In this document: positions 124-33,190 of the stretch, one piece after another
Numbering within the stretch: position 1 is the first letter of the stretch
How the letters are laid out: every line of letters starts with the position of its first letter
DNA from: a virus
Length of the DNA: 52,885 bases
IMG/VR virus record: IMGVR_UViG_3300016461_000001
Span: 1-52,885 of that record
Direction: 5' to 3' (one strand)
Translations under genes and position numbers: made by a program
The notes under the pieces: generated by a model
Databases searched by the model: none
Seen by the model: the letters and a program-made list of their open reading frames with translations, nothing else
What the model was told of the DNA's origin: nothing

Positions 124-1822
124 CGGCACCCGGCTCTCGGTGATGAAGACCGTCTTCGAGCAGAAGAAGCGGCAGGGACTGTCGGACTACGACGCGATGA
201 TCGAGGCGGCGGCCCAGGCGACCGACGTGCTCGACTTCGGCCGGCACGGGTCCGGGACGCTCTACCTTCGCACGCTGGTCCCCTTCCTCAACGCGCACCT
301 GCAGGCGCTCGACCTCGCCCGCCGGACGCTGATCGATCCCCTCTGGCGCTCGGCCCGGGACGGCATCGTGACAGAGCAGGATGCCGCCGCGCTGAAGAAT
401 GCTGGCATCGGCTGGTTCAAGCTGGCCGGCGTCGGCGGCGCGCGCGGCACCATGTACGGCCTCTGGGCATCGCAGAGCGAGGCCTACCGGGACGCGAACG
501 AGGAGCTGCGCGCCACGCACCTGATCCTGCCCGGCGATGCGTTCGGCCGGCCGGGCAAGATCCTGGTCGTGCCGAAGCCGTTCGAACTGGCGATGGGCTT
601 CAATCTGGGCGAGGCGGTCGGCCTCAAGATCGCGACCGGCGACCCTCGCGCGGCCTCGTTCGCCATGGACGGCGTGCGCGAGGTGATCCAGCCGCCGAAC
701 CCGCTGACGGGCATCCCGCTCGTGAAGACGGCCGCGGAGCTGACGCTGAACCGATCCTTCTTCACCGGCCGCGACATCGTCCCGGAGAACCTCCAGAACA
801 AGGAGAATCCGCGCTTCGAGGTGAAACCCAACACCTCCTCGGCGGCGAAGGCGATCGGGAACGCCCTCAACATCTCGCCGATCAAGGTCGACTACGCCGT
901 CGGCTCCATGTTCGGGAACTGGGGCCGGGACCTGATGTCGGTCTCGAACCAGGCCGACCCGAACCAGCCCGCCGCGGCGAACGAGGACACCATGTTCCTC
1001 CGGCGCTTCATCAAGGGCGCGGACCGGTCGAGCGAGACCACGAAGCTGTTCTGGGAGCAGGCGGCCCAGCGCAACGGCGCCTTCGCCCAGGCCGCGGCGC
1101 ACTATGGCGACCTCCTCAAGAGCTACCAGGACCGCGACGCCTCGGACTACCTCGCGGCCCTGCCGGCGGCGCAGAAGGCCTACGTCATGCTCACGCAGGG
1201 CGGCGATGAGGACACCGGCAAGGCCTCGTTCAACGCGGACGACAAGCGCCTGCACCCGATCACTCGGGCCGCCAACGCCGTGCAGGTGGTCGGCGGCCTG
1301 ATCAAGGAGCTGACGAACAACAGCCAGAAGACCTTCGAGGACGGCGAGCGGATCGGGATGGACCCGCAGAAGCGCCGGGACGTGATCGACGCGCTGCGCG
1401 TCCTGCAGGCGATCGAGCAGCGCAACGCCCTCGTGCTCACGGAGCAGAAGGGCTACGAGGGCCGGCCCATGCTCTCGGCCGAGGATCAGTTCGCGGTCCT
1501 GAAGGCGCAGAGCCCCGTCGCGGCGGCGGAGCTCGCGACCCGCTACGCCACGAACAAGATCCTGCCGACCGACACCGTGGCGAAGCTCTGGCCCGAGGCG
1601 CAGCGCCGGCTCCTCGCCGACGGCACGCAGGCCGAGATCCGCGACCTCGCGCTCGACGCCAAGGTCGACGGCTGGGCCTTCGACGGCGACGCGGTCCGCA
1701 AGCCGCAGCGCCGCCGCGTCAGCATCGACCCGAGCGCCCCGCCGCCGCCGCGCGGGGAGCGCCGCGTTCCGCCCGCGCTGTCGGTCCCGAACACGACCCC
1801 GGTCCCGAACCCCTTCAACTGA
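1..1822 (+). CDS. C-terminal part of the giant (~2179 aa) virion-internal/ejection protein; continuation of the ORF open to 52885
   Basis: The frame is open from base 2. Track ORF 11..1822 starts ...ARRGWKAQKLGG, the same peptide encoded at 52770-52885. Stop TGA at 1820-1822. Confidence 0.8.
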   Translation, partial: VNALARRGWKAQKLGGIGDLAHGHLLGPLKAGAETIETAEAGTRLSVMKTVFEQKKRQGLSDYDAMIEAAAQATDVLDFGRHGSGTLYLRTLVPFLNAHLQALDLARRTLIDPLWRSARDGIVTEQDAAALKNAGIGWFKLAGVGGARGTMYGLWASQSEAYRDANEELRATHLILPGDAFGRPGKILVVPKPFELAMGFNLGEAVGLKIATGDPRAASFAMDGVREVIQPPNPLTGIPLVKTAAELTLNRSFFTGRDIVPENLQNKENPRFEVKPNTSSAAKAIGNALNISPIKVDYAVGSMFGNWGRDLMSVSNQADPNQPAAANEDTMFLRRFIKGADRSSETTKLFWEQAAQRNGAFAQAAAHYGDLLKSYQDRDASDYLAALPAAQKAYVMLTQGGDEDTGKASFNADDKRLHPITRAANAVQVVGGLIKELTNNSQKTFEDGERIGMDPQKRRDVIDALRVLQAIEQRNALVLTEQKGYEGRPMLSAEDQFAVLKAQSPVAAAELATRYATNKILPTDTVAKLWPEAQRRLLADGTQAEIRDLALDAKVDGWAFDGDAVRKPQRRRVSIDPSAPPPPRGERRVPPALSVPNTTPVPNPFN

Positions 1823-1830
1823 GGCTCCCC

Positions 1831-1998
1831 ATGATGCCCCTCGTCTACGCCGCGGCTCTGCTGGCGGCTCTCTCGACGTGCGCGCAGGCCGCCACCCGCC
1901 CGCGCCACCATCACCCCCGCGCCGTGTCCGTCCCCGTCTTCATCGAGGGCGTGGGCACGGTGTGGATCTCCGCCCGCCCGGCCCGCGCCCGGCGCTGA
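1831..1998 (+). CDS. Small (55 aa) signal-peptide/lipoprotein-like protein, first gene of the lysis cluster
   Basis: Hand-translated ORF below the track cutoff: MMPLVYAAALLAALSTCAQAATRPRHHHPR... It has a hydrophobic N-terminus with LSTC/AQA and its ATG lies 8 nt after the giant ORF stop. Confidence 0.4.
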   Translation: MMPLVYAAALLAALSTCAQAATRPRHHHPRAVSVPVFIEGVGTVWISARPARARR

Positions 1999-2026
1999 CG
2001 TTCCCCCTGACCATAGCGAGGACGAC

Positions 2027-2929
2027 ATGACCGCTGCCCTGGACCGGGCGACGTTCTACGCGGCTGTGCGCAAGGCCCCCTTCGGCGGGGGGCTCTCGCA
2101 GTCGCAGGTGGACGGCATGAACGCGATGTTCGACATGGCGCCGCCGATGATGGCGACCATGGATCTCGGCTACTGCTTCGCCACCGCCCACCATGAAACC
2201 GGCGGCGCGATGGTGCCGCGGGTCGAGAACCTGACGTACACGACCGCCTCGCGGATCAAGGCCGTCTGGCCGTCGCGCTTCCCGACCGAGGCCGCGGCGG
2301 TGCCCTACGTGCGCAACCCGCAGGCGCTCGCCAACAAGGTCTATGGTGGCCGGCTCGGTAACACGCAGCCGAACGACGGCTGGGACTTCCGCGGTATGGG
2401 CCTCGTCCAGGCCACCGGCCGCGACAACGCGCGCCGCGGGACCATCCGGCTCTGGGCGCTCGGCTACCTCACCGCCGATCAGGACCTCGAGGTGACCCCG
2501 ACGCTGATGCTCAACCCGGACATCGCGGCAGCCATGCTGTTCGTCGGCCTGTCCGAGGGCTGGTATACGGGCAAGAAGCTCGCGCAGTTCTTCGGCACCG
2601 GCTTGGAGAACCCCACCGGCGCCCGGGCGATCGTCAACCCGGACAGCAACGGCGCGTCGATCGCCGTCACCTACCGCGCCTTCGCGAACGCCCTGCGCGC
2701 CGCCGGCCACAAGCCGGGCGCCGTCGCGGCAACGATCCCGATTCCGCCGGTCGAGACCGCACCGCTGAAACCGCCCCCCGTCGCGGCACAGCCCATCGCA
2801 GCGCCGACCCAGCCCGCCCCCTCCGGCGGGCTTTCTTCTGCCCCCACCCCGGCGCCGCTCGGCCCGGTCGTGCAGACCGGCGGCTTCTGGTCCGCCCTGA
2901 AATCCCTCTTCACCGGAAAGGCAGCTTGA
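2027..2929 (+). CDS. Endolysin, glycoside hydrolase family 19-like, with Pro/Ala-rich linker and amphipathic C-terminal tail
   Basis: Motifs AHHETGG..VENL...KVYGGRLGNTQPNDGWDFRGMGLVQATGRDN are typical of phage GH19 lysozymes. The C-terminus is GGFWSALKSLFTGKAA. Confidence 0.85.
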   Translation: MTAALDRATFYAAVRKAPFGGGLSQSQVDGMNAMFDMAPPMMATMDLGYCFATAHHETGGAMVPRVENLTYTTASRIKAVWPSRFPTEAAAVPYVRNPQALANKVYGGRLGNTQPNDGWDFRGMGLVQATGRDNARRGTIRLWALGYLTADQDLEVTPTLMLNPDIAAAMLFVGLSEGWYTGKKLAQFFGTGLENPTGARAIVNPDSNGASIAVTYRAFANALRAAGHKPGAVAATIPIPPVETAPLKPPPVAAQPIAAPTQPAPSGGLSSAPTPAPLGPVVQTGGFWSALKSLFTGKAA

Positions 2930-2931
2930 TC

Positions 2932-3516
2932 ATGAACTGGCAGAGCATCGCGGGTCAGCTCGCGCAGATCGGGCTTCCGGCCCTCGGTACCCTGTTCGGC
3001 GGTCCGCTTGGCGGCACCATCGGCGGCCTGGTCGGCAAAGGCGTGGCCGCGGCGCTGGGCGTCGAGCCGCCCCCGCAGGCCGTGTCTACCGCCATCTCTG
3101 CCGACCCGAACGCGGCCGCCGTGAAGCTGGCGCAGATCGAGGCCGAGACCAAGGCGAACGAAGCGCAGCTCGCCGACATCGCCAACGCCCGCGGCACCAC
3201 CGTGCAGCTCGCGACCGTCGGCTCGAACATCGCCTGGGGCGCCCCGGTGGTGTCCTGCATCATCTGCGTGGGGTTCTTCGCCGTCCTGACGATGCTCTTC
3301 TTCGTGCGGGTCGAGATGCCGTCGAGCGTGTTCCAGCTCCTGAGCGTCATCCTCGGCGTCCTCGCCAGCCTCATGACCCAGGTCGGGAACTACTGGCTCG
3401 GCTCCTCCGAAGGTTCGCGCCGCAACGCCGACACGATCCGGGACGTGGCCCGCAGCGCCGTCTCGCCGCCGCCCGGCGTCGTGGCGGCCACCGTCGCTCA
3501 GGCCATCAAGCGCTAG
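2932..3516 (+). CDS. Holin, GTA-type 3-TM holin-like
   Basis: Gly-rich N-terminus MNWQSIAGQLAQIGLPALGTLFGGPLGGTIGGLVGKG plus C-terminal TM segments. It lies directly after the endolysin. A TTG at 2926 overlapping the endolysin stop is an alternative start. Confidence 0.65.
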   Translation: MNWQSIAGQLAQIGLPALGTLFGGPLGGTIGGLVGKGVAAALGVEPPPQAVSTAISADPNAAAVKLAQIEAETKANEAQLADIANARGTTVQLATVGSNIAWGAPVVSCIICVGFFAVLTMLFFVRVEMPSSVFQLLSVILGVLASLMTQVGNYWLGSSEGSRRNADTIRDVARSAVSPPPGVVAATVAQAIKR

Positions 3517-5066: not shown

Positions 5067-5822
5067 ATGGATCGTGCGGCGCAGTTGTTGGAAGGCATCG
5101 ACGTCGACGCCCTGGTCGGGCTCGAGGTCGGGCCGCTCGATAAGGCGCTGGTCAAGCGGACCGAGGGGCGACAGATCTTCTACGCGGACTACGCGGACAG
5201 GGCCGCGCTACGGGCGGCCTCGGAAACCGACCCGAACGTCAACATCGACGCGATCCCCGAGATCGATTACGTGATCGCGCCGCTGCCGGAGAGGCTGCCG
5301 CGGCAGTTCGATTACGTCATCGCGTCACACGTCGGCGAACACGTCCCGGATCTGCTGGGCTGGTTGAAGACCCTGTTCGGATGGCTCAAGCCCGGCGGCG
5401 TCGTGATCCTGGCGCTCCCGGACAAGCGCTACACCTTCGACTGCCTGCGCGAGCACAGCACCATAGGGGAGCTGCTCGAGGCGCACGTCGAGAAGCGGGA
5501 GCGGCCGTCCTTCGCCTCGATCTATGACGGGTTCAGCAAGGCGACGCGGAACGACGTGTGCGCCCTCTGGGAAGGCGCGGATCCCGCAAAGTTCGAATAC
5601 CAGTTCCCTCGCGACGTCTCGTTCAGGATGGCGCGCGACGCGCACATCAATGGGACATATCGGGACTGTCACTGCTGGGTGTTCACAGCTCACGGGTTCC
5701 GCGCGCTGCTGGATGAAGCCCGAGATCTCGGCGTGATCGATTTCGATTGGGTCCGAGCGACCGATCCAGAGACCTACACGGTCGAGTTCTATGTCACGAT
5801 AAGACCGCGCGCCGCTCACTGA
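5067..5822 (+). CDS. Class I SAM-dependent methyltransferase (moron)
   Basis: VIASHVGEHVPDLLGWLKTLFGWLKPGGVVILALPDKRYTFD resembles Methyltransf_11/23-type proteins. RBS GGAGGA lies 8 nt upstream. Confidence 0.7.
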   Translation: MDRAAQLLEGIDVDALVGLEVGPLDKALVKRTEGRQIFYADYADRAALRAASETDPNVNIDAIPEIDYVIAPLPERLPRQFDYVIASHVGEHVPDLLGWLKTLFGWLKPGGVVILALPDKRYTFDCLREHSTIGELLEAHVEKRERPSFASIYDGFSKATRNDVCALWEGADPAKFEYQFPRDVSFRMARDAHINGTYRDCHCWVFTAHGFRALLDEARDLGVIDFDWVRATDPETYTVEFYVTIRPRAAH

Positions 5823-6027
5823 TCAAGGCCGCGAGAGTTCTGAAGGCAACCTTGGTGCCAACTTCAACGGCGAGCACCTTTTCGGTCAGATACTTAGCGC
5901 GGGCTTGATCGCCTTCGGCAAGCGCCGTCCTGATGTCCCTCACGACGCCGGCGATGAAGTTGGTATCGGGCATCAAGGCGGCTCCGCTGTAGTCTATGCC
6001 AAGCGCCGCAGCGCTTGACCGAGCCAT
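5794..6027 (-). CDS. Hypothetical helical protein (77 aa); second gene of the wHTH module that the IS disrupted
   Basis: Track ORF. Its ATG at 6027 sits 3 nt after the reconstructed stop (6031-6033) of the IS-split upstream gene. It overlaps the methyltransferase 3' end convergently by 29 nt. Confidence 0.35.
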   Translation of the reverse strand: MARSSAAALGIDYSGAALMPDTNFIAGVVRDIRTALAEGDQARAKYLTEKVLAVEVGTKVAFRTLAALISERRAVLS

Positions 6028-6030
6028 AGC

Positions 6031-6123
6031 TCACCGGCAGGAGAGACGGCTAGTGGGCTTGCTCGCGTCGATCTCAGCGAGGTGCTGTCGCCCCGCAGCA
6101 GTGATGAACCACGCTGAAATTTT
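6031..6123 (-). pseudogene. Detached 3' fragment of a small winged-helix gene split by the IS insertion
   Basis: Removing 6124-8745 joins 8746-8910 in frame to 6123-6031, giving ...GRKISAWFITAAGRQHLAEIDASKPTSRLSCR*. Confidence 0.5.
6116..6123. repeat. Target-site duplication GAAATTTT (left copy)
   Basis: The 8-mer is identical to 8738-8745 and lies immediately outside both IS termini. Confidence 0.85.
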
Positions 6124-6134
6124 GGTTATCCGGA

Positions 6135-7517
6135 TTATCGCGTGGAGTCGGCGAAGCCATCAAGCCAGCCCTTGGTGTGGAATGTGTTGCACCGATTGCA
6201 GAGATCAATCTGCGCAATCGGTGTGTACTGGCGTCCCCCAGCAGGGCCGTAGAAGCCTCGCCCCCATCCGATAAGGTGCAACGGGTCCATCTCTGCGACG
6301 GGGAACTGCCCCAGGCATTCCTCGCATACTGCCAGTCGGAGCTTGCCGCGGGTCGGCAGCGTCAGCGCGCGAGCCCGGATCGCGTCGAAACGGTAGCCGC
6401 GCCCGGCTCGGTTGACGATCTTGATCAGCCCGTTGGCGGCCTCGGTGTAGGCGTTGGTGTAGGGGTGATCGAAGTACGCGAAGACCTGCTCCCGCCATGC
6501 GTCGATCGTCTTGGCGACGCCCTTGAACTCATCCACCTCGCTCGGGATGCTCGTCTTCCAGCGGTCAAACATGGTCTCGGCTTCGTGCCGAGACCGCCGC
6601 TGTTCACCGCCCCAGATGTCGTAGAACGCTTCCTTCGTGTGCCAAGCCGCCGACAGCAGATCGTTGTTCTTGAGCATGCCGTCGAGGACGAACGCGCGCT
6701 GCGGGCTGAGGGTCTTGCCATGCGCGTGCAGCAGGCGGCGAGCCCGCCACGGGTTGCGCCGATCCTTGCCTTTGGCGCCCCGCCGCTGCCGATTGCGGAT
6801 CACATCGAGTGCAGCGTTCGCTTTGCTCTGAACGTGCCATCGGTCGGAGATGATAACGGCATCCGGCAGAAGGGCTTGCACCGCCTCGCGGTACGGCCCC
6901 CACATGTCGATAGTGACGATCTTGATGCGACGGCGGTTCGTCAGGATGCTGAGCCAGCGGTCAACCGCTGGCCGGTTCATGCTGTCGATCAAGTCGAGGA
7001 TGCGCCGCTCGCCGACATCCGTGAAGATGGTTCGCTTGCGGCCGAGAAGGTGCAGTTCGTCGATGCCGAGCGCAACCGGTGCCGTAGGCTTGTGCCGGGC
7101 CAACAGGCTCTCAATCTCCTCGTTGCAGATGTCCCGGATGGTCTTCTCGTCCAGACCGATCTCACGGGCGAGGTGGGCGTAGGGCCGGATCAGACCCTGC
7201 TCGCGGATGTGATCGGCGCATCGCCGCGTCATCCGCCGCTGCGGGTCCATGTCGGGCAAGGGCTGCATGAACGTCGCGCTACAGTCTCGGCAGCGGTAGC
7301 GCTGGACATCGACCGCGACGATGGTCCGGAGTCCGTGTACAGGAGCATCCACGTAATCGATGGCCCGTGTCCCATGTCGATAGGGCTGCCGGGTGGAACC
7401 GCACTTCGGACAGTGGGTGGGCTCGACATCGTAGCGGGCCACCAGCCGGTAGCCCTCTTGCGACCGTTCCACCTTCTCCACGGTCCAGTCGTCCAGATAG
7501 AGTGCGTTGACGGCCAT
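6135..7517 (-). CDS. ISL3 family transposase
   Basis: N-terminal zinc finger CPKCGS..CRDC. DDE landmarks LGIDELHL, VTIDMWGPY, YTNAYTEAANGLIKIVNR. The stop codon lies inside the terminal repeat. Confidence 0.9.
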   Translation of the reverse strand: MAVNALYLDDWTVEKVERSQEGYRLVARYDVEPTHCPKCGSTRQPYRHGTRAIDYVDAPVHGLRTIVAVDVQRYRCRDCSATFMQPLPDMDPQRRMTRRCADHIREQGLIRPYAHLAREIGLDEKTIRDICNEEIESLLARHKPTAPVALGIDELHLLGRKRTIFTDVGERRILDLIDSMNRPAVDRWLSILTNRRRIKIVTIDMWGPYREAVQALLPDAVIISDRWHVQSKANAALDVIRNRQRRGAKGKDRRNPWRARRLLHAHGKTLSPQRAFVLDGMLKNNDLLSAAWHTKEAFYDIWGGEQRRSRHEAETMFDRWKTSIPSEVDEFKGVAKTIDAWREQVFAYFDHPYTNAYTEAANGLIKIVNRAGRGYRFDAIRARALTLPTRGKLRLAVCEECLGQFPVAEMDPLHLIGWGRGFYGPAGGRQYTPIAQIDLCNRCNTFHTKGWLDGFADSTR

Positions 7518-7546
7518 GCTTCCTCGCTGGCCGGGCTATGTCAGAA

Positions 7547-7566
7547 CCGGATTACGATGTGGAGTC
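7547..7566. repeat. Internal direct copy of the left-end motif (CCGGATTAcgatgTGGAGTC), upstream of the transposase start
   Basis: 16/20 identical to 6130-6149 in the same orientation, about 30 nt upstream of the tnp ATG. Confidence 0.5.
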
Positions 7567-7648
7567 CGGCCACCCCATCTGTTAGTGCCCCGCCGGATGT
7601 GGCGGTTCGTTGATCCAATGGGCCACCTTGTTCGCGCATGCTGGCCTG

Positions 7649-8068
7649 CTATATTAAAGCTGTCCCCGCCGAAGGATGCGTCCGAGGCACCCCATCGGCT
7701 TCGGCCGGTGGGACCTCGCTCCCTTCAGGTTTCTCCTCGGCACAAGCGAGCAACCTAATTGCATTCAGAGCTTCCGCATCTGTCATATCGCCACGATTGA
7801 CAATGTACTGGCTATGGATCTCGTGAAGCACGCCGCGCAGACGTTCGTTATCGTCTTCTGCGTCACGCCATAGAGCGTCTGTAATATTGCACAGACCTAT
7901 AGCATCAATTGCAATTCGGATCGCACAAACGCCGTCCGTTAGCCAGTTTGCTGCATCTGTATCGCCCTCTTCGATGCGGTTTGCGAGGGCGCCTTGAAGG
8001 TGAAGGCTAAGATTTCTCAGCTTTTGAATGATGGGATCGCCCGTCTTCTCGGTCGCATGAAAGCTCAT
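7649..8068 (-). CDS. IS passenger ORF P3, hypothetical helical protein (139 aa)
   Basis: Track ORF. Its ATG is 1 nt after the P2 stop (TGAgATG). Low-G+C codon usage unlike the phage backbone. Confidence 0.6.
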   Translation of the reverse strand: MSFHATEKTGDPIIQKLRNLSLHLQGALANRIEEGDTDAANWLTDGVCAIRIAIDAIGLCNITDALWRDAEDDNERLRGVLHEIHSQYIVNRGDMTDAEALNAIRLLACAEEKPEGSEVPPAEADGVPRTHPSAGTALI

Positions 8069-8069
8069 C

Positions 8070-8291
8070 TCAGTGCTCCATGTTCAGAGCACCTGAGGTG
8101 CTCAGGAGAGACAGAGGCGTCAGGATGCTGCCGCCCTCAGCATTGAACCACTCCTCGTAGCCGTCCGGCTCGCAGTCAGCGCACCGCTCCTCAACGAGGG
8201 CGACGGCCTTCGGCAGATCGGGGTTGTCCAGCTTGTCGATGGTTCGCTCCGACATGCAGGCCGGGCAGCGTTGGACGATGAACCGCATCAT
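8070..8291 (-). CDS. IS passenger ORF P2, small zinc-ribbon protein (73 aa)
   Basis: MMRFIVQRCPACMSERTI...EERCADCEPDGYEEW has two CxxC pairs. GGAGG lies 10 nt upstream of the ATG at 8291. Confidence 0.6.
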   Translation of the reverse strand: MMRFIVQRCPACMSERTIDKLDNPDLPKAVALVEERCADCEPDGYEEWFNAEGGSILTPLSLLSTSGALNMEH

Positions 8292-8316
8292 GGGCGTTTC
8301 GCCTCCGGTCAGGATC

Positions 8317-8382
8317 CACACCTAAATCCGGATTGACGATAGCACGCCCGGTGCTAGTTTCAACACTCAAATCCGGATAGCC
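8317..8382. repeat. 66-bp IS-end-like module R1 (two ATCCGGAT palindromes bracketing promoter-like hexamers)
   Basis: 58/66 identical to 8672-8737. On the minus strand it reads TTGAAA-N16-TATCGT. The central palindrome is TAGCAC-gcccg-GTGCTA. Confidence 0.8.
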
Positions 8383-8621
8383 TCATTGAGTTTCGGCCAT
8401 AGGCAGACAACAGCATGAGGCGGTTCTGCTGGGAGTTCATCTGCCGGGATCAGGTTGCTCAAAGCCGTCATACTGGTGGCGAGAGCATTCCAGTCATCCC
8501 GGTTGACGGCGAGAGGTAGCCACTCATGGTAGCCGGTATTATCAACAAGCGCCCACGCTGAACGCACGACCTCCAGAATTGCATCGTATGCGGCCGAGTT
8601 GGCATTGACGGAATTTTCCAT
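8367..8621 (-). CDS. IS passenger ORF P1, hypothetical protein (84 aa)
   Basis: MENSVNANSAAYDAILEVVRSAWALVDNTGYHEWLPLAV... GGAG lies 7 nt before the ATG at 8621. The track gives a 100-aa version. The stop lies inside R1. Confidence 0.5.
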   Translation of the reverse strand: MENSVNANSAAYDAILEVVRSAWALVDNTGYHEWLPLAVNRDDWNALATSMTALSNLIPADELPAEPPHAVVCLWPKLNEAIRI

Positions 8622-8671
8622 CCCACTGCTCCATCTTAAGAGCATCTCAGTGCTCTGGCGCTTCGGCAACC

Positions 8672-8737
8672 CACACCGAAATCCGGATTGATGATAGAAC
8701 GTCTGATGCTACTTTCAACACTCAAATCCGGAAAGCC
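8672..8737. repeat. 66-bp IS-end module R2; its outer edge is the functional right terminus of the element
   Basis: Copy of R1. On the minus strand it reads TTGAAA-N16-TATCAT. It abuts the target duplication. Confidence 0.8.
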
Positions 8738-8910
8738 GAAATTTTACGGCCCGGGCCCCGCGCCGGCCGCGACACCACCAGCCCCAGCTTCCGCAGCGTC
8801 GGCATCGCCGACGGGTAGGCTTCGTGCCGCAGCCCCTGCGGGTAGAGCAGGCAGGCGCGGAGCGCGGCGAGCTGTCGGCCGCGGACGGGTGCGATCGGTT
8901 CGGACGGCAA
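8722..8910 (-). pseudogene. 5' part of a small winged-helix-like gene truncated by the IS (now ends ...GRKISAFRI* inside the IS end)
   Basis: LAALRACLLYPQGL...MPTLRKLGLVVSRPARGPGRKIS. The only start is a TTG at 8910. The reading frame runs into 8722-8745 (IS end plus duplication). Confidence 0.4.
8738..8745. repeat. Target-site duplication GAAATTTT (right copy)
   Basis: Identical to 6116-6123. Confidence 0.85.
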
Positions 8911-8941: not shown

Positions 8942-8977
8942 TCGTCAGTTTCGGTAAGCAAGCAGAGGGGTAAGTGT

Positions 8978-9022
8978 TGGTGCCGCAAGAGGGATTCGAA
9001 CCCCCGACCCCCTCATTACGAA
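8978..9022 (-). tRNA. Partial tRNA-Thr(CGU) 3' fragment (anticodon loop to CCA); probable attP core
   Basis: The reverse complement reads TTCGTAA-TGAGG-GGGTC-GGGGG-TTCGAAT-CCCTC-TTGCGGC-A-CCA. No matching 5' half: the anticodon-stem partner is absent upstream. Confidence 0.75.
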
Positions 9023-9151
9023 ACATGGGTTACCCAGCAAATTAGTTGACAGGACTGCTTACCGGCCTGCAGAAGCGTCGATCTGCGAGGGGTTTGTGTG
9101 CGCGTACCCTCTCATTAAGCGGACGAGACCGACCGCTCGGTTCGTCACCGC

Positions 9152-9178: not shown

Positions 9179-10444
9179 ATGCGCCTCACGAACCAGTCTG
9201 CCCTTGCCGTGCGGCTCCCCGCCGGGCGCGATCGGATCGTGGTGTTCGACGACGACCTCCCGGGCTTCGGGCTGAGCCTGAGCAAGGGCGGGTCCCGCAT
9301 GTGGGTTGTCCAGTACCGGAACGCACTCGGGCAATCGAAACGGGAATCGCTGGGCAAGGTCGGGCTGCTGTCTGCGTCCGATGCGCGCCGCGCTGCCGGC
9401 GAGCGGCTCGCCCGGGCCAAACTCGGCGAGGATCCGCACGCCGAGAAGGTGAAGGCGAAAGCCCGGGCGGCGGTCACGTTCGGCGCGGTGGTCGAGCCGT
9501 ATCTGGAGGCTGTTGGGCCCGGCCTGCGGCCAGCCTACCTCGCCGAGGCCGGCCGCTACCTGCGCACGACCTGGAAGCCGCTGCACAAGCTCCCGCTGCA
9601 CACCGTCGGGCGCCCCGAGATTACCGAGCACCTGACCAAGATCCGGAACGAGACTGGGCCGCACGCGGCAAATCGGGCTCGCGCCGCGCTGTCGGCGCAC
9701 TTCGCCTGGCTGGTCGGAACGGGCAAGGCCGAGACGAATCCGGTCATGGGTGTGCCGAAGCCCGCGCCCGAGGTGCGCCGCGCCCGGGTGCTGGCCGAGG
9801 ACGAGATCGCCCGGGTGCTGAAGGCCTGTCGCAACGACGACTTCGGACGGATCGTGCGCCTGCTGCTCCTCACCGGGCAACGCCGCGACGAGGTGGCCGA
9901 CATGGCTTGGACCGAGGTGGATCTGGCCGCGGGCCTGTGGTCGCTACCGGGCGAGCGCGTGAAGAATGGGCAGGACCACGACGTGCCGTTGTCGGCCCCT
10001 GCCCTGCAGATCCTCGCCGGAACAGAGCGCATCGAGGGACGACCGCTGGTGTTCGGCCAGGGCGACGGGGGGTTTCAGGGCTTCTCCCGGGCGAAGGCGA
10101 CGCTCGACAAACGCTCTGGCGTCACCGGATGGCGGCTGCACGATCTGCGCCGCACGGCTGCCACCGTCATGGGCGACCGCCTGAAGGTGCTCCCGCACGT
10201 GATCGAGGCCGTGCTGAACCACATCTCCGGCCACAAGGCGGGCGTGGCCGGCATCTACAACCGGGCGCTCTACGCCACGGAGAAGCGCGAGGCCCTAGAC
10301 GCGCTCGGCGCCTATCTCGCAGGCCTTAAGCCAAGCATCGAGATCGCCTCGGCGGATGCCGAGCCGGCGCTCGCTAAGCCGAAGAAGCGTCGGGCCGCGG
10401 CCGTCCTTGCACATCCGGCGAAGCGTCGCGGCGCTGAGTCCTAG
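9179..10444 (+). CDS. int: Tyrosine integrase (P4-like, N-terminal Arm/DUF4102-type domain)
   Basis: LPGFGLSLSKGGSRMWVVQYR at the N-terminus. Catalytic landmarks LLLLTGQRRDEV, HDLRRTAAT, VLNHISG, GIYNRALY. Adjacent to the tRNA fragment. Confidence 0.9.
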   Translation: MRLTNQSALAVRLPAGRDRIVVFDDDLPGFGLSLSKGGSRMWVVQYRNALGQSKRESLGKVGLLSASDARRAAGERLARAKLGEDPHAEKVKAKARAAVTFGAVVEPYLEAVGPGLRPAYLAEAGRYLRTTWKPLHKLPLHTVGRPEITEHLTKIRNETGPHAANRARAALSAHFAWLVGTGKAETNPVMGVPKPAPEVRRARVLAEDEIARVLKACRNDDFGRIVRLLLLTGQRRDEVADMAWTEVDLAAGLWSLPGERVKNGQDHDVPLSAPALQILAGTERIEGRPLVFGQGDGGFQGFSRAKATLDKRSGVTGWRLHDLRRTAATVMGDRLKVLPHVIEAVLNHISGHKAGVAGIYNRALYATEKREALDALGAYLAGLKPSIEIASADAEPALAKPKKRRAAAVLAHPAKRRGAES

Positions 10445-21459: not shown

Positions 21460-21885
21460 ATGATCACACCTGATGATGCGCGAGAGGCTGTCCGGCCTCC
21501 GCTGGTCCTACTGGTAGATCACCACGTCGAGCAGGGCGCAGACCGAATGCAGGCCTATGGTCGCGTCGCCGGTCTCGTCGGTCGCTCGTCTGCATGGGTG
21601 CGTCGAGTCCTCGGTCGCGATCCCCGCGCGACCGTCGGCTTGCACGACGCCCTCAACATCCGCGCCGCCTACGACCGCGTCTGTGCGCGCGTCGAGGCTA
21701 CCACCGCTCGCGTCGATGCGCTCGCCGACGCGCTGGAGGACTACGCCGATGAAGCTCCTGCGCGCACTTCGCGATCTGCTGCGCGCTCTGTCCCGGCTGC
21801 TGCACGTGCTCCCGCGCGTCGCCGCCAGGATCTGCGCTTCCGGCGCGCGCCGCTGATCCCCGTCTCGGCCCTCGCGGCCGCCTGA
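21460..21885 (+). CDS. Hypothetical protein (141 aa), possible regulator
   Basis: MITPDDAREAVRPPLVLLVDHHVEQGADRMQAYGRVAGLVGRSSAWVRRVLG... This is an internal start of the track ORF. Confidence 0.5.
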   Translation: MITPDDAREAVRPPLVLLVDHHVEQGADRMQAYGRVAGLVGRSSAWVRRVLGRDPRATVGLHDALNIRAAYDRVCARVEATTARVDALADALEDYADEAPARTSRSAARSVPAAARAPARRRQDLRFRRAPLIPVSALAAA

Positions 21886-21919
21886 GCTTCGGCCAACCCG
21901 GCCAGAAGGGAGAGAACCC

Positions 21920-22135
21920 ATGAACGACGCAAAGAAGAACTTCCTCGCCAACCTGTTCGGCGTCGCCGCGCACGAGGTCGAAAGCTTGGTCGGCAAGCTG
22001 AAGGACGCGCTCAGTCACGAGGCTGGCGACGAGACCGCGGCCGTGGAGCCGCGTGTCGCGGCGCTGGAGACCGAGGTCGCCGAGCTGCGGAAGACCCTCG
22101 AGGACCTGACCGCCCCCGAGCAGCAGGCCGCCTGA
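21920..22135 (+). CDS. Hypothetical coiled-coil protein (71 aa)
   Basis: Track ORF with a GGGAGAG RBS. Followed by the GC hairpin CCGCCGCCCG/CGGGCGGCGG at 22143-22169. Confidence 0.55.
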   Translation: MNDAKKNFLANLFGVAAHEVESLVGKLKDALSHEAGDETAAVEPRVAALETEVAELRKTLEDLTAPEQQAA

Positions 22136-22201
22136 ACGCGAACCGCCGCCCGGGTTCAGCGGGCGGCGGCGGTCGCATCGTCTTCGTAACTGGAGAGCAC
22201 C

Positions 22202-22909
22202 ATGGAAACCACAGACCAGCAGGACGTGCAAGCTGAGACGCTGTCGGGCGACATTCGCGACAGCTTCCTGACCATCTTCCGCGACGTGCGGGAGCCCTGG
22301 GCCAAGCTGCCGGAGCATCAGCAGCGCCAGATCAACGAGGAGGTCGACCGCCTCGCCCGCGTCCTCGTCACCCGCGCCGTGTTCATCGCGCTGGATCGCG
22401 GCTTCGTCCACATCCCGGTCGTCACCGGCAAGGCCGTGCTGGCCGACGGGATCAAGATCGAGGTCTCGGCCTCGCGCATCGCCAAGAACTGCACGATCCT
22501 CGGCGAGAACCCGCCCGGCCCGGCCGTGCTGGTGTTCGCCGACGTCGAGGACTTCATCGGCGAGCGCGCGCCGGCGCCAGTCGACCAGGACCAGCCTGGG
22601 CTCCCGATCCACGACGAGGACGGTGTGATCGAGGAGGCCTCGGACCTGACCATCGATCAGGCCGAGGAGCTCGTCGCGGGCGCCGAGACGTTCCAGGGCA
22701 TGACCGTGCGGACCGGCCACCTCCCCGAAGGCGAGCGCCGCGAGAAGCTGGAGGCGGCCGTGCTGGCGAAGGGCGGCAAGCTCTACGCCTATCCCGCGCC
22801 GAACGAGAGCATCCGCCGCGAGCGCGAGAAGACGGCGGGTCGCGGCCGCGGCAGGGCCACCGGCAACGGTCTGCCCAAGTCCGAGATGCCTGCCGCTCCG
22901 TCCGCCTGA
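22202..22909 (+). CDS. Hypothetical protein (235 aa)
   Basis: Track ORF with ordinary composition. Confidence 0.6.
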   Translation: METTDQQDVQAETLSGDIRDSFLTIFRDVREPWAKLPEHQQRQINEEVDRLARVLVTRAVFIALDRGFVHIPVVTGKAVLADGIKIEVSASRIAKNCTILGENPPGPAVLVFADVEDFIGERAPAPVDQDQPGLPIHDEDGVIEEASDLTIDQAEELVAGAETFQGMTVRTGHLPEGERREKLEAAVLAKGGKLYAYPAPNESIRREREKTAGRGRGRATGNGLPKSEMPAAPSA

Positions 22910-22923
22910 TCGGAGCCCGGGTT

Positions 22924-23373
22924 ATGCCCTCGTCCGTCACGATCCGCTTGCCCGGGCCGCCTCAGGGCAAGCAGCGCCACCGCTCCCGGGTCGTGGCGGG
23001 CAAGGGCGGCAAGTCGTTCGCCAGCCAGTACAGCGATCCGAAGACCGTCGCTTATGAGCGCCGGCTTCGGGCCGCCGCGACCGTCGAGATGGATGGAGCC
23101 GCCCTGCTCACGGGCATGCTCTCCGTCGCCGTGTTCGCCTTCATGCCGATTCCCGCATCGTGGCCCAAGCGCAAGCGGCAGCAGGCCCGCGACCGCGTCA
23201 TCCGCCCCGTCACGAAGCCGGACTGGGACAACGTCGCCAAGGTCACCGACGCGCTGAACGGCGTGGTCTGGGGCGACGACGCCTCCGTGGTCGATGGCTA
23301 CGTGCGGAAATACTACGCCGACGAGCCCGAGCTGGTCGTGCAGGTGTCCGTCGTCGTTCCGGAGGCCGCATGA
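22924..23373 (+). CDS. rusA: RusA-family Holliday junction resolvase
   Basis: LPGPPQGKQRHR...VTKPDWDNVAKVTDALNGVVWGDDASVV. Confidence 0.8.
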   Translation: MPSSVTIRLPGPPQGKQRHRSRVVAGKGGKSFASQYSDPKTVAYERRLRAAATVEMDGAALLTGMLSVAVFAFMPIPASWPKRKRQQARDRVIRPVTKPDWDNVAKVTDALNGVVWGDDASVVDGYVRKYYADEPELVVQVSVVVPEAA

Positions 23374-23594
23374 AAGTCCGCGGCGTTCATCTCCATGTCC
23401 CGTACCTGATCGGCAATGGCCGGTGGTGCTCGTGCTGCTTCCCCGACGGCCCACCGGACGCGGTGAGCTACGCGACTAGTCGCAGGAAGCGCCGCGGCTG
23501 CAACGAGTGTGCTGGGGCCGGGCGCATCGCTTTCACCGCTGAAGAAATCATCGCGGCATACCGGACGCGGTCTGCGCCTGAGAGGGCCGCATGA
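23370..23594 (+). CDS. Small Cys-rich (zinc-finger-like) protein (74 aa)
   Basis: GRWCSCC...GCNECAG. ATGA overlap with rusA. Confidence 0.5.
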   Translation: MKVRGVHLHVPYLIGNGRWCSCCFPDGPPDAVSYATSRRKRRGCNECAGAGRIAFTAEEIIAAYRTRSAPERAA

Positions 23595-23848
23595 CCTGGG
23601 TCATCGTCCAAGAAGGGCGCATCCTCTACCGCGGCTCCCGCGAGGAGTGCATGGCCGCCGCCGAGCGATTTGGCCTGCTGTTCCACGTCGGCAGCGAGCT
23701 CGATGACACCGGCGAGCCGCGCGGCGTGCTTGTCGATGGGCGCCACTGGCATCCCGATGGCACCGAGCTGCCCTGCCGGATCGCCCGCGGCACCGTGATG
23801 ATGCTGGAGCGGATGCTGCCGCGACGCCTGCGGAGGATCGCGGCGTGA
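23591..23848 (+). CDS. Hypothetical protein (85 aa)
   Basis: Track ORF with an ATGA overlap. Confidence 0.5.
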   Translation: MTWVIVQEGRILYRGSREECMAAAERFGLLFHVGSELDDTGEPRGVLVDGRHWHPDGTELPCRIARGTVMMLERMLPRRLRRIAA

Positions 23849-25809
23849 GCGACCGTGACGCCTTCTCGCCTCACATGGAGGCCGTCGCCCGGGCCATGCT
23901 CGGCGATCCGAATCCGCGCCTGACGACGCCGAACGAGCTGCGCTACGGCAGCAATGGCTCGCTGTCGATCGACCGCCACGCCGGCATCTGGTTCGACCAC
24001 GAGCGTCAGGTCGGCGGCGGTGTGCTGGATCTGCTGAAGGACAAGCAGGGCCTGCAGAACGGCTCTGCGCTGGAGTGGCTCCGCGAGCGCGGATTCCTGC
24101 CGGAGCGGGAGCAGCCGGTGCAGTCGGCCCAGACTGCCCGCGCCCGGGTCGACAAGGTCTATGACTACGTCGACGAGAACGGCGAAGTCGTCTTTCAGGT
24201 CGTACGGTTCGAGCCGAAGACCTTCCGTCAGCGTCGGCCGGCCGCTTTCGGCGAGGACACCCGCGACGGCTTCGTCTGGTCGGTAAAGGGCATCACGCTC
24301 GTTCCGTACCGCCTGATCGAGATCCAGGAAGCCATCGCGAACGGTCACGTCGTGATGATCGTCGAGGGCGAAAAGGACGCCGACGCGCTCTGGCTGCGCG
24401 GCATCCCGGCTACCTGCAACCCAATGGGTGCCGGGAAGTGGTCTCCGGACCTGGACCGGCACTTCGAGGGTGCCGACGTCGTGATCCTGCCGGACAACGA
24501 CGAGCCGGGCCGGAAGCACCGCGATCTCGTTACCGCCCGGCTGTCGTCGGTTGCCAAGCGCATCCGCAGCCTTGAACTGCCGGATCTGCCGGTGAAGGGC
24601 GACGTGTCCGACTGGTTGGATGCGGGCGGCTCGGCTGAGCAGCTCTACCACCTGATCGAGCGCGGCGCCCGGGCCCCGTGGGACGTGCCGCCGGCCTCGC
24701 GCTTTGGCGCGCTCTGGCTGGACGCTATCCCCGGCAAGGTGAGCAACACGCCTTGGATCGTGAAGGGCATCGTGCCCGGCCGTGGCTTCGGAGCCGTCAT
24801 CGGGCAGCCGGGGTGCGGGAAGTCGTTCCTGGCGCTGGACCTGGCTTTCACCGTGTCAGTGCTGGCCTTCACCGAGGGCGAGGACTCGCGCTGGTTCGGC
24901 CGCCGGGTCCGCCCGATCGGCGTCGTCTACATCGCGGCCGAGGGTCAGACGGGCTTCGTGAAGCGGGTCGAGGCGCTGCTCAAGCGCTACCGCGTCGACG
25001 ATCTCAGCCGCTTCCCCTTCGTCCTGTATCCGACGGCGCTCGACCTCCGGAACCCGGAAGGTGACACCGGACCGCTATGCGAGGAGCTGAAGGCCATCGG
25101 CGCCCGCATGCAGGAGCGCATGGGCGTCCCGCTCGGCCTGATCATCGTCGACACGCTGAACCGCGTGCTCGCCGGTGGCGACGAGAACGCGCCAGAGGAT
25201 ATGGGCGCACTGATCCGGAACTGCTCTCGGATCCAGGAGGCGACCAACGGCGCCACCGTCGTCCCGGTCCACCACATGAACGCCGCCGGCACCCGCGAGC
25301 GCGGGCACTCCTCGCTTCGTGGCGCCCTGGACTTCATGATCGAGGTCGAGCGCGGCGAGGCCGGCAATAGCTGGAAGGTCGCCAAGCAGAAGGACGAGGA
25401 GGACGGTCAGGTCTTCTCGTTCACGCTCGCGAGCCAGGTCGTCGGACTGGACGAGGACGGCGACGCGATCACCTCTTGCCTCGTCGAGGCCGTGGAGGCG
25501 CCCCGCCTCGGCCCGCAGCCCCGGCGCGCCAAGCTGCCGCCGCAGGCGCTGAACGCCTACAACATCCTGTTCCGGCACTGCGACGACAGCGGCCAGCGCC
25601 GCTACCTGCTCGGCCGGGACCGGGTCTGCATCACCCTGACTGCCTGGCAGGAGGAGTGCCGTCGACAGAACCTCGTAGCCCCGGGTGGCGGTGAAGACGC
25701 CTTCCGCAAGGCATTCGGGCGAGCCTTCGACGTGCTCCGAGCTGACCAGCGCGTCGGCGTCGAGGGGGATTACGTGTTCCCGATCCTGAAGAAGTTCGAC
25801 ACCTCCTGA
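23845..25809 (+). CDS. Bifunctional primase/helicase-like replication protein (Toprim plus RecA/AAA_25-like ATPase)
   Basis: Toprim: VMIVEGEKDADAL...ILPDNDEPGRKH. Walker A: GQPGCGKSFLALDLA. Then IIVDTLNR and VHHMNAAG. Confidence 0.8.
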   Translation: MSDRDAFSPHMEAVARAMLGDPNPRLTTPNELRYGSNGSLSIDRHAGIWFDHERQVGGGVLDLLKDKQGLQNGSALEWLRERGFLPEREQPVQSAQTARARVDKVYDYVDENGEVVFQVVRFEPKTFRQRRPAAFGEDTRDGFVWSVKGITLVPYRLIEIQEAIANGHVVMIVEGEKDADALWLRGIPATCNPMGAGKWSPDLDRHFEGADVVILPDNDEPGRKHRDLVTARLSSVAKRIRSLELPDLPVKGDVSDWLDAGGSAEQLYHLIERGARAPWDVPPASRFGALWLDAIPGKVSNTPWIVKGIVPGRGFGAVIGQPGCGKSFLALDLAFTVSVLAFTEGEDSRWFGRRVRPIGVVYIAAEGQTGFVKRVEALLKRYRVDDLSRFPFVLYPTALDLRNPEGDTGPLCEELKAIGARMQERMGVPLGLIIVDTLNRVLAGGDENAPEDMGALIRNCSRIQEATNGATVVPVHHMNAAGTRERGHSSLRGALDFMIEVERGEAGNSWKVAKQKDEEDGQVFSFTLASQVVGLDEDGDAITSCLVEAVEAPRLGPQPRRAKLPPQALNAYNILFRHCDDSGQRRYLLGRDRVCITLTAWQEECRRQNLVAPGGGEDAFRKAFGRAFDVLRADQRVGVEGDYVFPILKKFDTS

Positions 25810-25821
25810 CGGGCTCAGCCG

Positions 25822-26005
25822 CCGGACAAGATCCGGACAAACCGCGGACAAAACCCTGTCCGGGCAGGCTCAAGCCTCAACCCATAGACAGCACGTTTTG
25901 TCCAGCCTTTGTCCGAAACCTGTCCGGTCAGTCCGCCAACATCCTCAGAGGGTTAGCGATGACCGGAGCAGTCCGCATGTCCAGTCCTGTCCGAACTTTG
26001 TCCGG
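25822..26005. promoter_or_regulatory. Iteron cluster, putative origin of replication
   Basis: CCGGACAA at 25822 and 25833 and GCGGACAA at 25844 (11-bp phasing), followed by at least 10 inverted (T)GTCC(G) copies, several also 11 bp apart. Directly downstream of the primase/helicase. Confidence 0.55.
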
Positions 26006-26047
26006 CCTCGCGCGCGCTCGCGCACATACGCGGGGGTTATACTCCTC

Positions 26048-26092
26048 GGGTAGTTATAGGGATCTCTTTCAGAGATCCCGATATAACTACCC
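26048..26092. repeat. AT-rich imperfect palindrome (20/22-nt arms, 3-nt loop)
   Basis: GGGTAGTTATAGGGATCTCT-ttc-AGAGATCCCGATATAACTACCC. Stands out in a G+C-rich genome. Confidence 0.7.
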
Positions 26093-26194
26093 TCGTAACC
26101 GTAGAGGATCCGCGCGCGACCCTCGGACGTCGGGTGCTGGCGGGTCCGCGCTTGGGGCGCTCCCCCGCCTGTCGCGTCCGATTCGGGAGGCCGC

Positions 26195-26578
26195 ATGAGC
26201 CGCCCCGCTCCGAAATCCGCGATGGCGCGGCTGTGGGATCGTCAGCGGCAGCAGGCCCGCGCCGCGATGGCGGCCCGCCAGCCCGCCGCCGATCCTGCGC
26301 CGGCGGTGAAGCCGCCGCCCGCCAGCGTCCCGCCGCGCCCGGCACCCGGGACGTTTCGCATCGCCGAACTCGTCGAGGGGCAGTGCCGCTTCCCGGTCAC
26401 GCCGCACCGGGCCCGACCGCACGAGCACCGGTTCTGCGGCGAGCCCGTCGCCTGGAAGGCCGGCAAGCCGACGAGCTGGTGCGGCCATCACCTGATCGAG
26501 GTCTGCGGCCAGCCCGGCCGAGCCCCGGGCGGCGCCAGCCTGGCCGACATGGCCCGCGCGCCGAAGGTGACCGCATGA
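26195..26578 (+). CDS. GcrA C-terminal-domain-like protein
   Basis: LVEGQCRFPV...HRFCGEPV..GKPTSWCGHH matches the C.(W/F)P...F.FCG...YC..H pattern of GcrA-type regulators. GGAGG RBS. Confidence 0.45.
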   Translation: MSRPAPKSAMARLWDRQRQQARAAMAARQPAADPAPAVKPPPASVPPRPAPGTFRIAELVEGQCRFPVTPHRARPHEHRFCGEPVAWKAGKPTSWCGHHLIEVCGQPGRAPGGASLADMARAPKVTA

Positions 26579-27246
26579 CCGATGCCGCCACCCTCCCCGC
26601 AGATCCTAGCATCGGCGCCGGAGAACGCTGCCGGTGGCAGTCGCCCGTCGGCTACCCGCCGCGTCGCCGCCGCGCCGCCGCGCTGCTCCACGCCGCTGGC
26701 GAGGCCGGGCGGAGCAACCGCGACGTGGTGCTCGTCGACCGACCGGCACCCGGCGCGCCCGGCGTCACGCGCCAGGTCACCGTCAACCGCCGCGTCGACA
26801 CGCTGGCCCACGAGCGGGCCCAGAAGCGGATCAGCCACGAGGAGTTCCACACCGGCCGCGCCATGCAGGCGATCTGGGAGGGCCAGGACGGCAGCCGCGT
26901 CTCCGGCGCCGACTGGTCCGGCGGCACGCGCCGCAGCGGCATCACCGACGGGCTCAGCGCCGCCGAGGTGCTCGCCATCCGCCGCATCGTCGGCGCCCGC
27001 CGGGCTGAGGACCTGAACGCCGAGATCCGCGACACCGTCGGACGCGAGGGCCTCCGAGAGCTCCGCGCCGTCCTCTGCGGCCACGGCTACTTCGCCGACA
27101 TGGCCGCAGCCGAGGGCCGGACCGGCGAGCGCGCCGCGTCCGAGATCGCCAGCCGATTCCGCTGGCTGCTGCGGCAGGCCACCAGGGCGCTGAGCGGCGC
27201 AGACGACGAGCAAGCCGTCCCCATCCGATCATGGGCCGGACGTTGA
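26575..27246 (+). CDS. Hypothetical protein (223 aa), possible late regulator
   Basis: MTDAATLPADPSIGAGERCRWQSPVGY... ATGA overlap with the GcrA-like gene. The track N-terminal extension was rejected. Confidence 0.55.
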   Translation: MTDAATLPADPSIGAGERCRWQSPVGYPPRRRRAAALLHAAGEAGRSNRDVVLVDRPAPGAPGVTRQVTVNRRVDTLAHERAQKRISHEEFHTGRAMQAIWEGQDGSRVSGADWSGGTRRSGITDGLSAAEVLAIRRIVGARRAEDLNAEIRDTVGREGLRELRAVLCGHGYFADMAAAEGRTGERAASEIASRFRWLLRQATRALSGADDEQAVPIRSWAGR

Positions 27247-27289
27247 CACCCGACGGCGCTTCTGACAGCCATTTGTACGCCGCGCAGTG

Positions 27290-27330
27290 CGCCCGCGTCC
27301 CTCCAAGGGGCCGCGGGCGTTCGCATTTCT
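27290..27330 (+). terminator. Terminator-like GC hairpin with a weak T tract
   Basis: CGCCCGCG (27290-27297) pairs with CGCGGGCG (27312-27319), plus an inner CCCT/GGGG pairing, then TTCGCATTTCT. Confidence 0.4.
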
Positions 27331-27340
27331 GGAGCGCTCC

Positions 27341-27496
27341 ATGAGCCCCGTCGCGATCATCCTGCTGATCCTGATCATCCTCGCCTTCGGCGGTGGCGGG
27401 TTCGGCTGGGGTGGCGCCTACCGCGGGCCCGGCTTCGGCATCGGGGGCGTGCTGATCATCGTCCTGGTGATCCTGCTGCTCACGGGGCGGCTGTGA
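27341..27496 (+). CDS. Small Gly-rich membrane protein (DUF3309-like, 51 aa)
   Basis: MSPVAIILLILIILAFGGGGFGWGGAYRGPGFGIGGVLIIVLVILLLTGRL. GGAG RBS. Confidence 0.55.
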   Translation: MSPVAIILLILIILAFGGGGFGWGGAYRGPGFGIGGVLIIVLVILLLTGRL

Positions 27497-27630: not shown

Positions 27631-27640
27631 GGCGCCACCC

Positions 27641-28177: not shown

Positions 28178-28182
28178 TCCCC

Positions 28183-28923: not shown

Positions 28924-28932
28924 GGCCGCATC

Positions 28933-30077: not shown

Positions 30078-30089
30078 GGAGACACCACC

Positions 30090-30323: not shown

Positions 30324-30338
30324 GGCTCACCCGCGGCC

Positions 30339-33188: not shown

Positions 33189-33190
33189 CC

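Follow-up and report, generated by a model that had tools for sequence, protein, structure and literature searches.

How does a mobile element lodged in a phage genome come to hold small genes of its own besides its transposase gene? This question is raised by IMG/VR virus record IMGVR_UViG_3300016461_000001, whose positions 1 to 52,885, that is, the whole stretch of DNA analyzed here, are hereafter called the window. An earlier reading made from its letters (the sequence-only reading) had described within it a single insertion sequence (IS) of the ISL3 family, carrying three unrelated small open reading frames (ORFs) and riding on a temperate phage. Here, we find that this interpretation is right in outline, as regards the ISL3 family, the cargo, the temperate phage, and the recent activity, and wrong in anatomy. 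Instead of one IS with three captured genes, the segment appears from its alignment with relatives to be a mosaic of two related ISL3 elements, which we call IS-A and IS-B, fused into one unit whose left end is present twice and whose transposase gene is chimeric.

An ISL3 Insertion in a Small Phage Gene

Positions 6124–8737 of the window (2,614 bp) are an ISL3-family insertion in a small gene of a temperate phage. As had been claimed, the segment is bracketed by a perfect duplication of the octamer GAAATTTT (table 1), which occurs only these 2 times on both strands of the 52.9-kb window, when 0.15 occurrences would be expected; for any one fixed pair of positions, 8 bp would match by chance with a probability of about 4.6e-5. 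That ISL3 elements duplicate 8 bp is borne out here and in two relatives described below, L004 and L001. The tips themselves, GGTTATCCGGATT (6124–6136, + strand) and GGCTTTCCGGATT (8737–8725, − strand), are imperfect inverted repeats that start with GG and share 11 of 13 bases, and the likeness to known ISL3 ends suspected in the sequence-only reading is recovered in the terminal repeats of ISPst2 (GGGTATCCGGAATTT.../GGGTATACGGATTT...; PMC6305408, Table 3).

Deleting 6124–8745, that is, the element and one copy of the duplication, does restore an ORF of 85 codons. The restored 85-aa protein has uninterrupted homologues in six IMG/VR contigs (74–84% identity over residues 1–81), whose DNA is colinear with the restored window and shows zero gap at the insertion point, as illustrated by CGTAGGATCTCAGCGTGG in contig L007, where the restored window has CGTAAAATTTCAGCGTGG. 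What the six relatives show at this site is an uninterrupted gene and not the segment as ancestral sequence without a duplication. The search for an empty site and for other copies, suggested at the outset, was rewarded in part: the uninterrupted gene was found through these protein homologues and copies of IS-A and IS-B were found elsewhere, whereas an exact search of viral contigs for the empty site CACGCTGAAATTTTACGGCC returned none and the fused unit is confined to one site (see below).

The identification of the transposase also stands. Its product matches Pfam DDE_Tnp_ISL3 (PF01610) at 8.2e-53 over profile positions 1–238 of 240, as well as the NCBIfam ISL3 equivalog NF033550 with 280.8 bits (cutoff 180); the announced zinc finger is recovered as Zn_ribbon_ISL3 (37.0 bits, cutoff 25.5), HTH_Tnp_ISL3 falling slightly below its cutoff (23.9 bits, cutoff 27.4). 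Residues D153, D204, D225, and E359 are invariant across six relatives with identity down to 28%, and the stop codon (6135–6137) lies within the end repeat. An exact-sequence look-up of the 460-aa transposase returned no record, and megablast of positions 6000–8900 against deposited phages and plasmids gave zero matches. With tblastn, an ISL3 transposase match was found in 61 of 50,697 deposited phage records, with a best identity of 38%; Burkholderia phage Bcep22, compared by its transposase match alone, is one example of an annotated ISL3-family transposase gene within a tailed-phage genome. Plasmid-borne ISL3 transposases are mostly less than 60% identical, the top ones among the matches listed being at about 36–40%, with one further record in the 60–80% band. 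Among 185,579 species genomes, the nearest transposase (66% identical) belongs to Microvirga arsenatis (L001), in a 1,866-bp element that has its own 138-aa upstream ORF and the duplication GATAAAAG. Compared with deposited phages, plasmids, and species genomes, the element thus appears to belong to a known family as an unnamed and divergent member.

A Mosaic of Two Related Elements

The motif GGYTWTCCGGATT is present 3 times in the window, when 0.08 occurrences would be expected, and its third copy (8382–8370, − strand) is an internal, second left end. Indeed, a 67-bp left end occurs twice, at 8316–8382 and at 8671–8737, the two copies being 88% identical. Alignment with relatives divides the segment into three parts. 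The first (8737–8383), which comprises the IS-A left end and the 5' part of a passenger gene, orfX, has 1 mismatch in 355 nt (99.7% identity) with a copy of IS-A in L004 (IMGVR_UViG_2888084233_000002), a related phage that is 80–90% identical to window 21858–34036 and whose IS-A, of 2,073 bp, sits at a different site within its own perfect 8-bp duplication TGACGTTC. The second part (8382–7461) is identical at 922 of 922 nt to a copy of IS-B in L022 (Logan contig DRR588487_13846, positions 881–3103; 2,223 bp); its first bases, at 8382, are precisely the terminal GG with which a complete left end opens, and it continues through orf73, orf139, and an internal site into the first ~55 nt of the transposase gene. 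The third part (7466–6124) holds the IS-A transposase and right end, with 3 mismatches in ~1,340 nt against L004. Below 7461, identity to L022 drops to 83–88% (12–17 mismatches per 100 nt), and a three-way alignment places a single switch there: of 326 informative sites, the 53 from 7466 upward are without exception B-type, and the 273 from 7460 downward are without exception A-type.

The two presumed parents differ from the window in complementary ways. In L004 and in Logan contigs L026–L032, IS-A has outer ends, a 5' part of orfX, and a transposase gene that are 99.4–99.8% identical to those of the window; the L004 copy, however, has a single left end, lacks orf73 and orf139, and carries a full-length orfX of 187 aa that overlaps the transposase start. 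In L004, L017, and L026, orfX extends 324 nt beyond the exact point where the inner tip begins in the window. The IS-B copy of L022, for its part, differs by a right-end variant (AAATCCGGATAGCC), by the divergence of the remainder of its transposase gene, and by its being stacked behind a different upstream module. Two complete IS copies flanking a cargo, as in a composite transposon, are not what is found, the window having one transposase gene and its left outer IS-A part being a 355-bp fragment.

The two joints are of different kinds. The left one is accurate to the IS-B tip and occurs without homology, which is how transposition leaves its mark; the right one corresponds to one homologous crossover, located ~55 nt inside the transposase ORF. 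Moreover, the parts of the element are 99.7–100% identical to copies at other sites, near-identical copies of IS-A lying at no fewer than three different sites; its activity has therefore been recent, as the sequence-only reading had proposed.

Origin of the Fusion and Competing Explanations

On these grounds, we consider it probable that the segment is an ISL3 insertion made by DDE transposition, and that it was fused from IS-A and IS-B by insertion of IS-B followed by a crossover. In a first step, suggested by the precise joint, IS-B (left end, orf73, orf139, and transposase) would have transposed into the orfX of IS-A, fusing its tip at 8382 to orfX codon ~80. In a second step, of which the breakpoint is visible and the event itself is what we infer, one homologous crossover at 7461–7465 between the directly repeated transposase genes would have removed the IS-B right end along with the greater part of the IS-B transposase gene, as well as the remainder of orfX and the beginning of the transposase gene of IS-A. 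Such a sequence of events would leave, between the outer ends of IS-A, one intact chimeric transposase gene, upstream of which lie three small ORFs and an additional left end on the inside. DDE transposition into the 85-codon phage gene, with duplication of the 8-bp target GAAATTTT, would have used the IS-A ends, and the fusion may either have preceded that transposition or have taken place in situ after a plain IS-A had inserted.

Several observations weigh against this scenario. No intermediate was found, that is, no complete IS-B within a complete IS-A, and a search via the neighboring methyltransferase returned only IS-bearing copies of this phage, with no isogenic genome that was either IS-free or had a plain IS-A in place. 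All contigs in which the fused 2,614-bp unit was found have it at one and the same site, so that the mobility of the fused unit is something we only infer. The copies in L022 and L030 are without matching 8-bp flanks, and some copies must therefore be rearranged, or the short contigs chimeric. Finally, the promoter and operator roles proposed below derive solely from consensus scans and conservation, and the passengers might play a role in transposition instead of being cargo.

The alternative that survives best, although we hold it to be unlikely, is that the block 8382–7541 was a non-autonomous cassette without a transposase gene, of the mobile insertion cassette (MIC) or miniature inverted-repeat transposable element (MITE) type, that moved alone into IS-A upstream of its transposase gene. 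The block is indeed bounded by inverted end-like sequences, and in L022 another transposase-less block lies directly beside IS-B. However, the sequences that flank the block are TCATTGAG and GGGCTATG, which is no 8-bp duplication of the sort a MIC or MITE would leave; the tip bases of the internal site differ from the conserved GGyTAT; and the B-type sequence, 100% identical to L022, goes 75 nt further past this site into the transposase ORF. In addition, the site is found at a matching distance from the transposase ATG in two other elements, L039 and L005, and is for that reason a standing part of the layout; the 324 nt of missing orfX would also be left unexplained.

Even less credit can be given to the original idea of a single transporter IS that captured three unrelated passengers and then entered the phage as one simple unit. 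The presence of a single intact transposase gene, a single outer pair of ends, and a single duplication would fit it, and ISL3 elements with two passengers have been published, ISPst2 among them (PMC6305408); yet it does not account for the complete second left end at 8316–8382, for an outermost ORF that is a truncated copy of a 187-aa gene, or for identity that switches from A to B to A with one sharp breakpoint inside the transposase gene. It is comparably improbable that the B segment reached IS-A purely through recombination, be it a gene-conversion patch or a double crossover, IS-B never having transposed. The right-hand junction is a homologous crossover, and left ends that are 88% identical could in principle recombine, but a crossover between left ends would leave one left end and not two, and the left junction, devoid of homology, is base-exact at the terminal GG of a complete IS-B end, the mark of a transposase-made joint.

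With regard to the assembly, an ENA/NCBI contig labelled uncultured Variovorax (NODE_127, 52,839 nt) holds the same phage with the same insertion at 99.95% identity, and both are also present in Logan contigs from at least 5 further runs. An assembly chimera, or ancestral phage DNA mistaken for an insertion, is scarcely conceivable: multi-copy IS often break or mis-join short-read assemblies, and the flanks of L030 and L022 are unmatched, but both junctions are crossed by single contigs in several independent runs and in the separate ENA/NCBI assembly, which argues that they are not artefacts, the target gene is uninterrupted in six relatives, and the duplication is perfect.

Ends, Promoter-Like Matches, and Shared Layout

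Under the favored origin by insertion of IS-B and crossover, the two parents share one layout, in which a 67-bp left end comes first, then one or more small passenger genes, a binding-type site on the inside, the gene for the transposase, and finally the right end. The left-end design is common to seven elements and consists of a terminal repeat that includes TTGAAA, a TATCAT-like hexamer 16–17 nt further on, and a second CCGGATTTnGGTGTGG site; as a sigma-70-type promoter, it matches at 9–10 of 12 positions. Each 67-bp left end is thus a candidate inward promoter, which would drive the passengers and the transposase gene. Outward-facing promoters have been documented in ISL3 elements (PMC9330008), and a match of this orientation was also found at the right end (table 1).

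The internal site resembles a right end. Its form CCGGACTCCACAnnnTAATCCG is shared by three distant members (the window and L022, L039, and L005), where it lies 27–30 nt before the transposase ATG. Its tip bases are not conserved, and we predict that it is most likely a transposase-binding operator and not a cleavable end. As RNA, neither the left ends nor the leader ahead of the transposase gene folded better than shuffled sequence.

Passenger Genes

In keeping with one part of the definition of a transporter IS, non-transposase genes are found inside the element: orf73, orf139, and the truncated orfX all sit within its ends (7649–8621). The sequence-only reading had counted three small ORFs of low G+C here. 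Non-transposase genes are indeed present, and their region has 52–58% G+C, when the transposase gene has 62–67% and the flanking phage DNA 65–70%; the outermost ORF, however, is truncated and not equivalent to the other two, and the stretch at 8100–8299 (orf73) is an exception, with 64%.

None of the three has a credible match in Pfam, PHROGs, NCBIfam, or PADLOC; a match of orf139 to LmuC (E = 0.03) was dismissed. Homologues were found for each, in 4 clusters for orf139 (60–100% identity), in 3 clusters as well as in L018 and L039 for orf73 (with its CxxC pairs conserved), and in 17 clusters for orfX, whose 80-aa N-terminal domain is strongly conserved. This conservation argues that the passengers are real genes. 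A profile search with the orfX domain among 1.8 billion representatives returned only 28 proteins, and the larger proteins among them have no Pfam domain. AlphaFold2 models are all-helical and of low confidence, with a predicted local distance difference test score (pLDDT) of 62 for orfX and of 59 for orf139. The leaders of orf139 (8066–8097) and of the truncated orfX (8619–8650) share a 32-nt stretch that is 81% identical, with a short hairpin and GGAG before the ATG, which suggests that their translation-start regions are related, though the two proteins look unrelated.

Some homologues of the passengers have no transposase gene near them and belong instead to runs of small ORFs in one orientation, as is typical of the accessory regions of phages, and this is a weak argument for true cargo. 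We suggest, with low confidence, that the passengers may be phage-derived accessory genes rather than transposition factors. At 5717–6627 of L041, a phage-like contig of 94 kb in which an Sf6-type small terminase is also found, a Tad2-like gene (PF11195) has an orfX-domain homologue (P0021, 208 aa) immediately downstream of it.

Related Copies and Their Sites

As regards the sites of the other copies, the IS-A of L004 landed in a small gene that the window lacks (L004 5230–7693, window 27210–27240), and this spot is therefore variable between both phages. In several Logan contigs, the 2,073-bp IS-A adjoins a flagellar gene, with flanks AAAAAATG and AAAAGATG; in one of these metagenome contigs (L026, positions 680–3207), the copy is next to flgD and its target duplication matches at 7 of 8 bases. 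Yet another site is occupied in L030. In Methylobacterium sp. PvP062 (L033, 2383–4552), an orfX homologue is found beside a different ISL3 transposase gene together with flgB, flgC, and fliE. The flagellar neighbors in L033 and L026 may reflect a target preference or a shared host.

The window is not the only case of stacked left ends. In L022, positions 1–947 hold a left end (31–99), orf122, orf132, and a right-end-like site that is joined directly to the IS-B tip at 881, so placed that the tip sits inside the internal site of another, different upstream element; orf132 ends in CPSCDEAHLKSILAPQDSTS, a C-terminus similar to the tail of ISL3 transposases. Another contig, L039, has a left-end relic ahead of a fourth passenger. 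On account of L022 and L039, stacking seems to recur in this clade. A further family member (L018, 1–1241) has a left end, a homologue of orf73, a homologue of orfX (68% nucleotide identity), and one more ORF, a gene order which argues that the same small genes are reshuffled among elements.

A broader view can be offered as speculation, one that we find rather doubtful: the clade may routinely stack cargo, a member landing in the passenger region of another, a crossover between both transposase genes reducing the pair to one working element, and every added module contributing a promoter-bearing left end of its own. The modules would then be small phage accessory genes, possibly involved in counter-defence, a thought prompted by the adjacency of an orfX-domain homologue and a Tad2-like gene, and the IS would shuttle them between phages and chromosomes.

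Comparison with Known ISL3 Elements

The concept of transporter IS has been set out in PMC9330008, and the nearest published systems are ISPst2 and ISPpu12 (PMC3735179) of Pseudomonas. Like the window element, they have a DDE transposase of the ISL3 family, passenger genes (two or more), terminal repeats of the GGGTATCCGGA(A/T)TT type, and 8-bp, mostly AT-rich target duplications; in the case of ISPst2, two passengers and the duplications TTTTTAAA and CAAAAAAG are reported (PMC6305408, Table 3). Unlike them, the window copy carries no regulator, permease, or metal-efflux genes, its passengers being tiny orphan proteins; its left end, moreover, is present twice and its transposase gene is chimeric.

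The fused structure is the product of textbook processes and the element is of an ordinary kind, nothing here altering the known picture of ISL3 transposition. Nested IS insertion and deletion by recombination between IS copies belong to this textbook repertoire, and they are exactly the processes of the proposed two-step origin; what differs is the outcome, an intact element with gained genes and not a dead nested pair. The fusion thereby shows one way in which ISL3 elements acquire extra genes, and its origin is traceable, each gene-adding step being legible in the sequence and both parent types still existing elsewhere. It also shows an IS tolerated by a complete temperate phage that is present in several independent samples, with a close relative of this IS at another site in a related phage.

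The Phage Genome around the Insertion

The window is a complete, circularly assembled genome of a temperate phage, one of whose genes is split by the element. Its ends are an exact direct repeat of 123 bp (1–123 and 52763–52885), from which it follows that the contig closes on itself as a circle of ~52,762 bp; the phage genome is either complete or terminally redundant. The carrier had been called a temperate phage, and this is upheld by its integrase, terminase, portal, capsid, tail, and lysis genes (table 1).

Table 1. Coordinates of the features of the insertion and of its carrier phage (positions in the window).
Feature	Position	Strand	Remarks
Target-site duplication, copy 1, GAAATTTT	6116–6123	+	directly abuts element tip
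Target-site duplication, copy 2, GAAATTTT	8738–8745	+	directly abuts element tip
Split 85-codon phage gene, 5' part	8746–8910	−	uninterrupted homologues known
Split 85-codon phage gene, 3' part	6031–6123	−	
Right end, IS-A type, inward GGTTATCCGGATTATCGCGTGGAGTC	6124–6150	−	holds transposase stop codon; identical to L004 right end
Outward promoter-like match TTGATG-18-GATAAT	6134–6163	−	toward 3' part of split phage gene; consensus match alone
ISL3 transposase gene, 460 aa, chimeric	6135–7517	−	first ~55 nt of IS-B type, remainder of IS-A type
Crossover interval, IS-B-type to IS-A-type	7461–7465	.	three-way alignment, single switch
Internal right-end-like site GACTCCACATCGTAATCCGG	7541–7570	−	23 nt upstream of transposase ATG; tip bases not conserved
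orf139, all-helical passenger	7649–8068	−	no known family
orf73, passenger, small CxxC...CxxC protein	8070–8291	−	homologues lead the passenger region in L018 and L039
Inner left end, IS-B, 67 bp	8316–8382	−	terminal repeat, promoter-like TTGAAA-16-TATCGT, second CCGGATTT site; 100% identical to L022
Truncated orfX, passenger, 84 aa	8367–8621	−	conserved N-terminal domain retained from the 187-aa passenger of IS-A; cut at 8383 by inner end
Outer left end, IS-A, 67 bp	8671–8737	−	terminal repeat GGCTTTCCGGATTT, promoter-like TTGAAA-16-TATCAT, second CCGGATTT site
Endolysin	2027–2929		
Tyrosine integrase	9179–10444		
Primase/helicase	23845–25809		
Large terminase	30339–31925		
Portal-type connector	33457–35178		
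Major head protein	36676–37503		
Tail proteins	38388–48030		

The element lies in an accessory zone, with the lysis genes on one side and the integrase on the other, and its cargo is found among accessory genes beside the attachment site and the integrase. Phages usually carry host-affecting genes in such zones. A transfer RNA (tRNA)-like 3' half (GGGGGTTCGAATCCCTCTTGCGGCACCA; 8977–9030, − strand), with a T-arm, the acceptor 3' strand, and CCA as judged by eye, lies ~240 bp from the element and ~150 bp from the integrase gene, and is likely the core of the attachment site. Neither ARAGORN nor Rfam detected an RNA gene within the element or close to it, and neither called this sequence; the sole Rfam match (E = 0.57) was discarded as noise. 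On the other side, the insertion adjoins an orphan gene for an S-adenosylmethionine (SAM)-dependent methyltransferase (5067–5822, + strand), which matches Methyltransf_11/12/23 and, weakly, the PADLOC profile mad2 (E = 1e-4), and which is probably a phage accessory gene.

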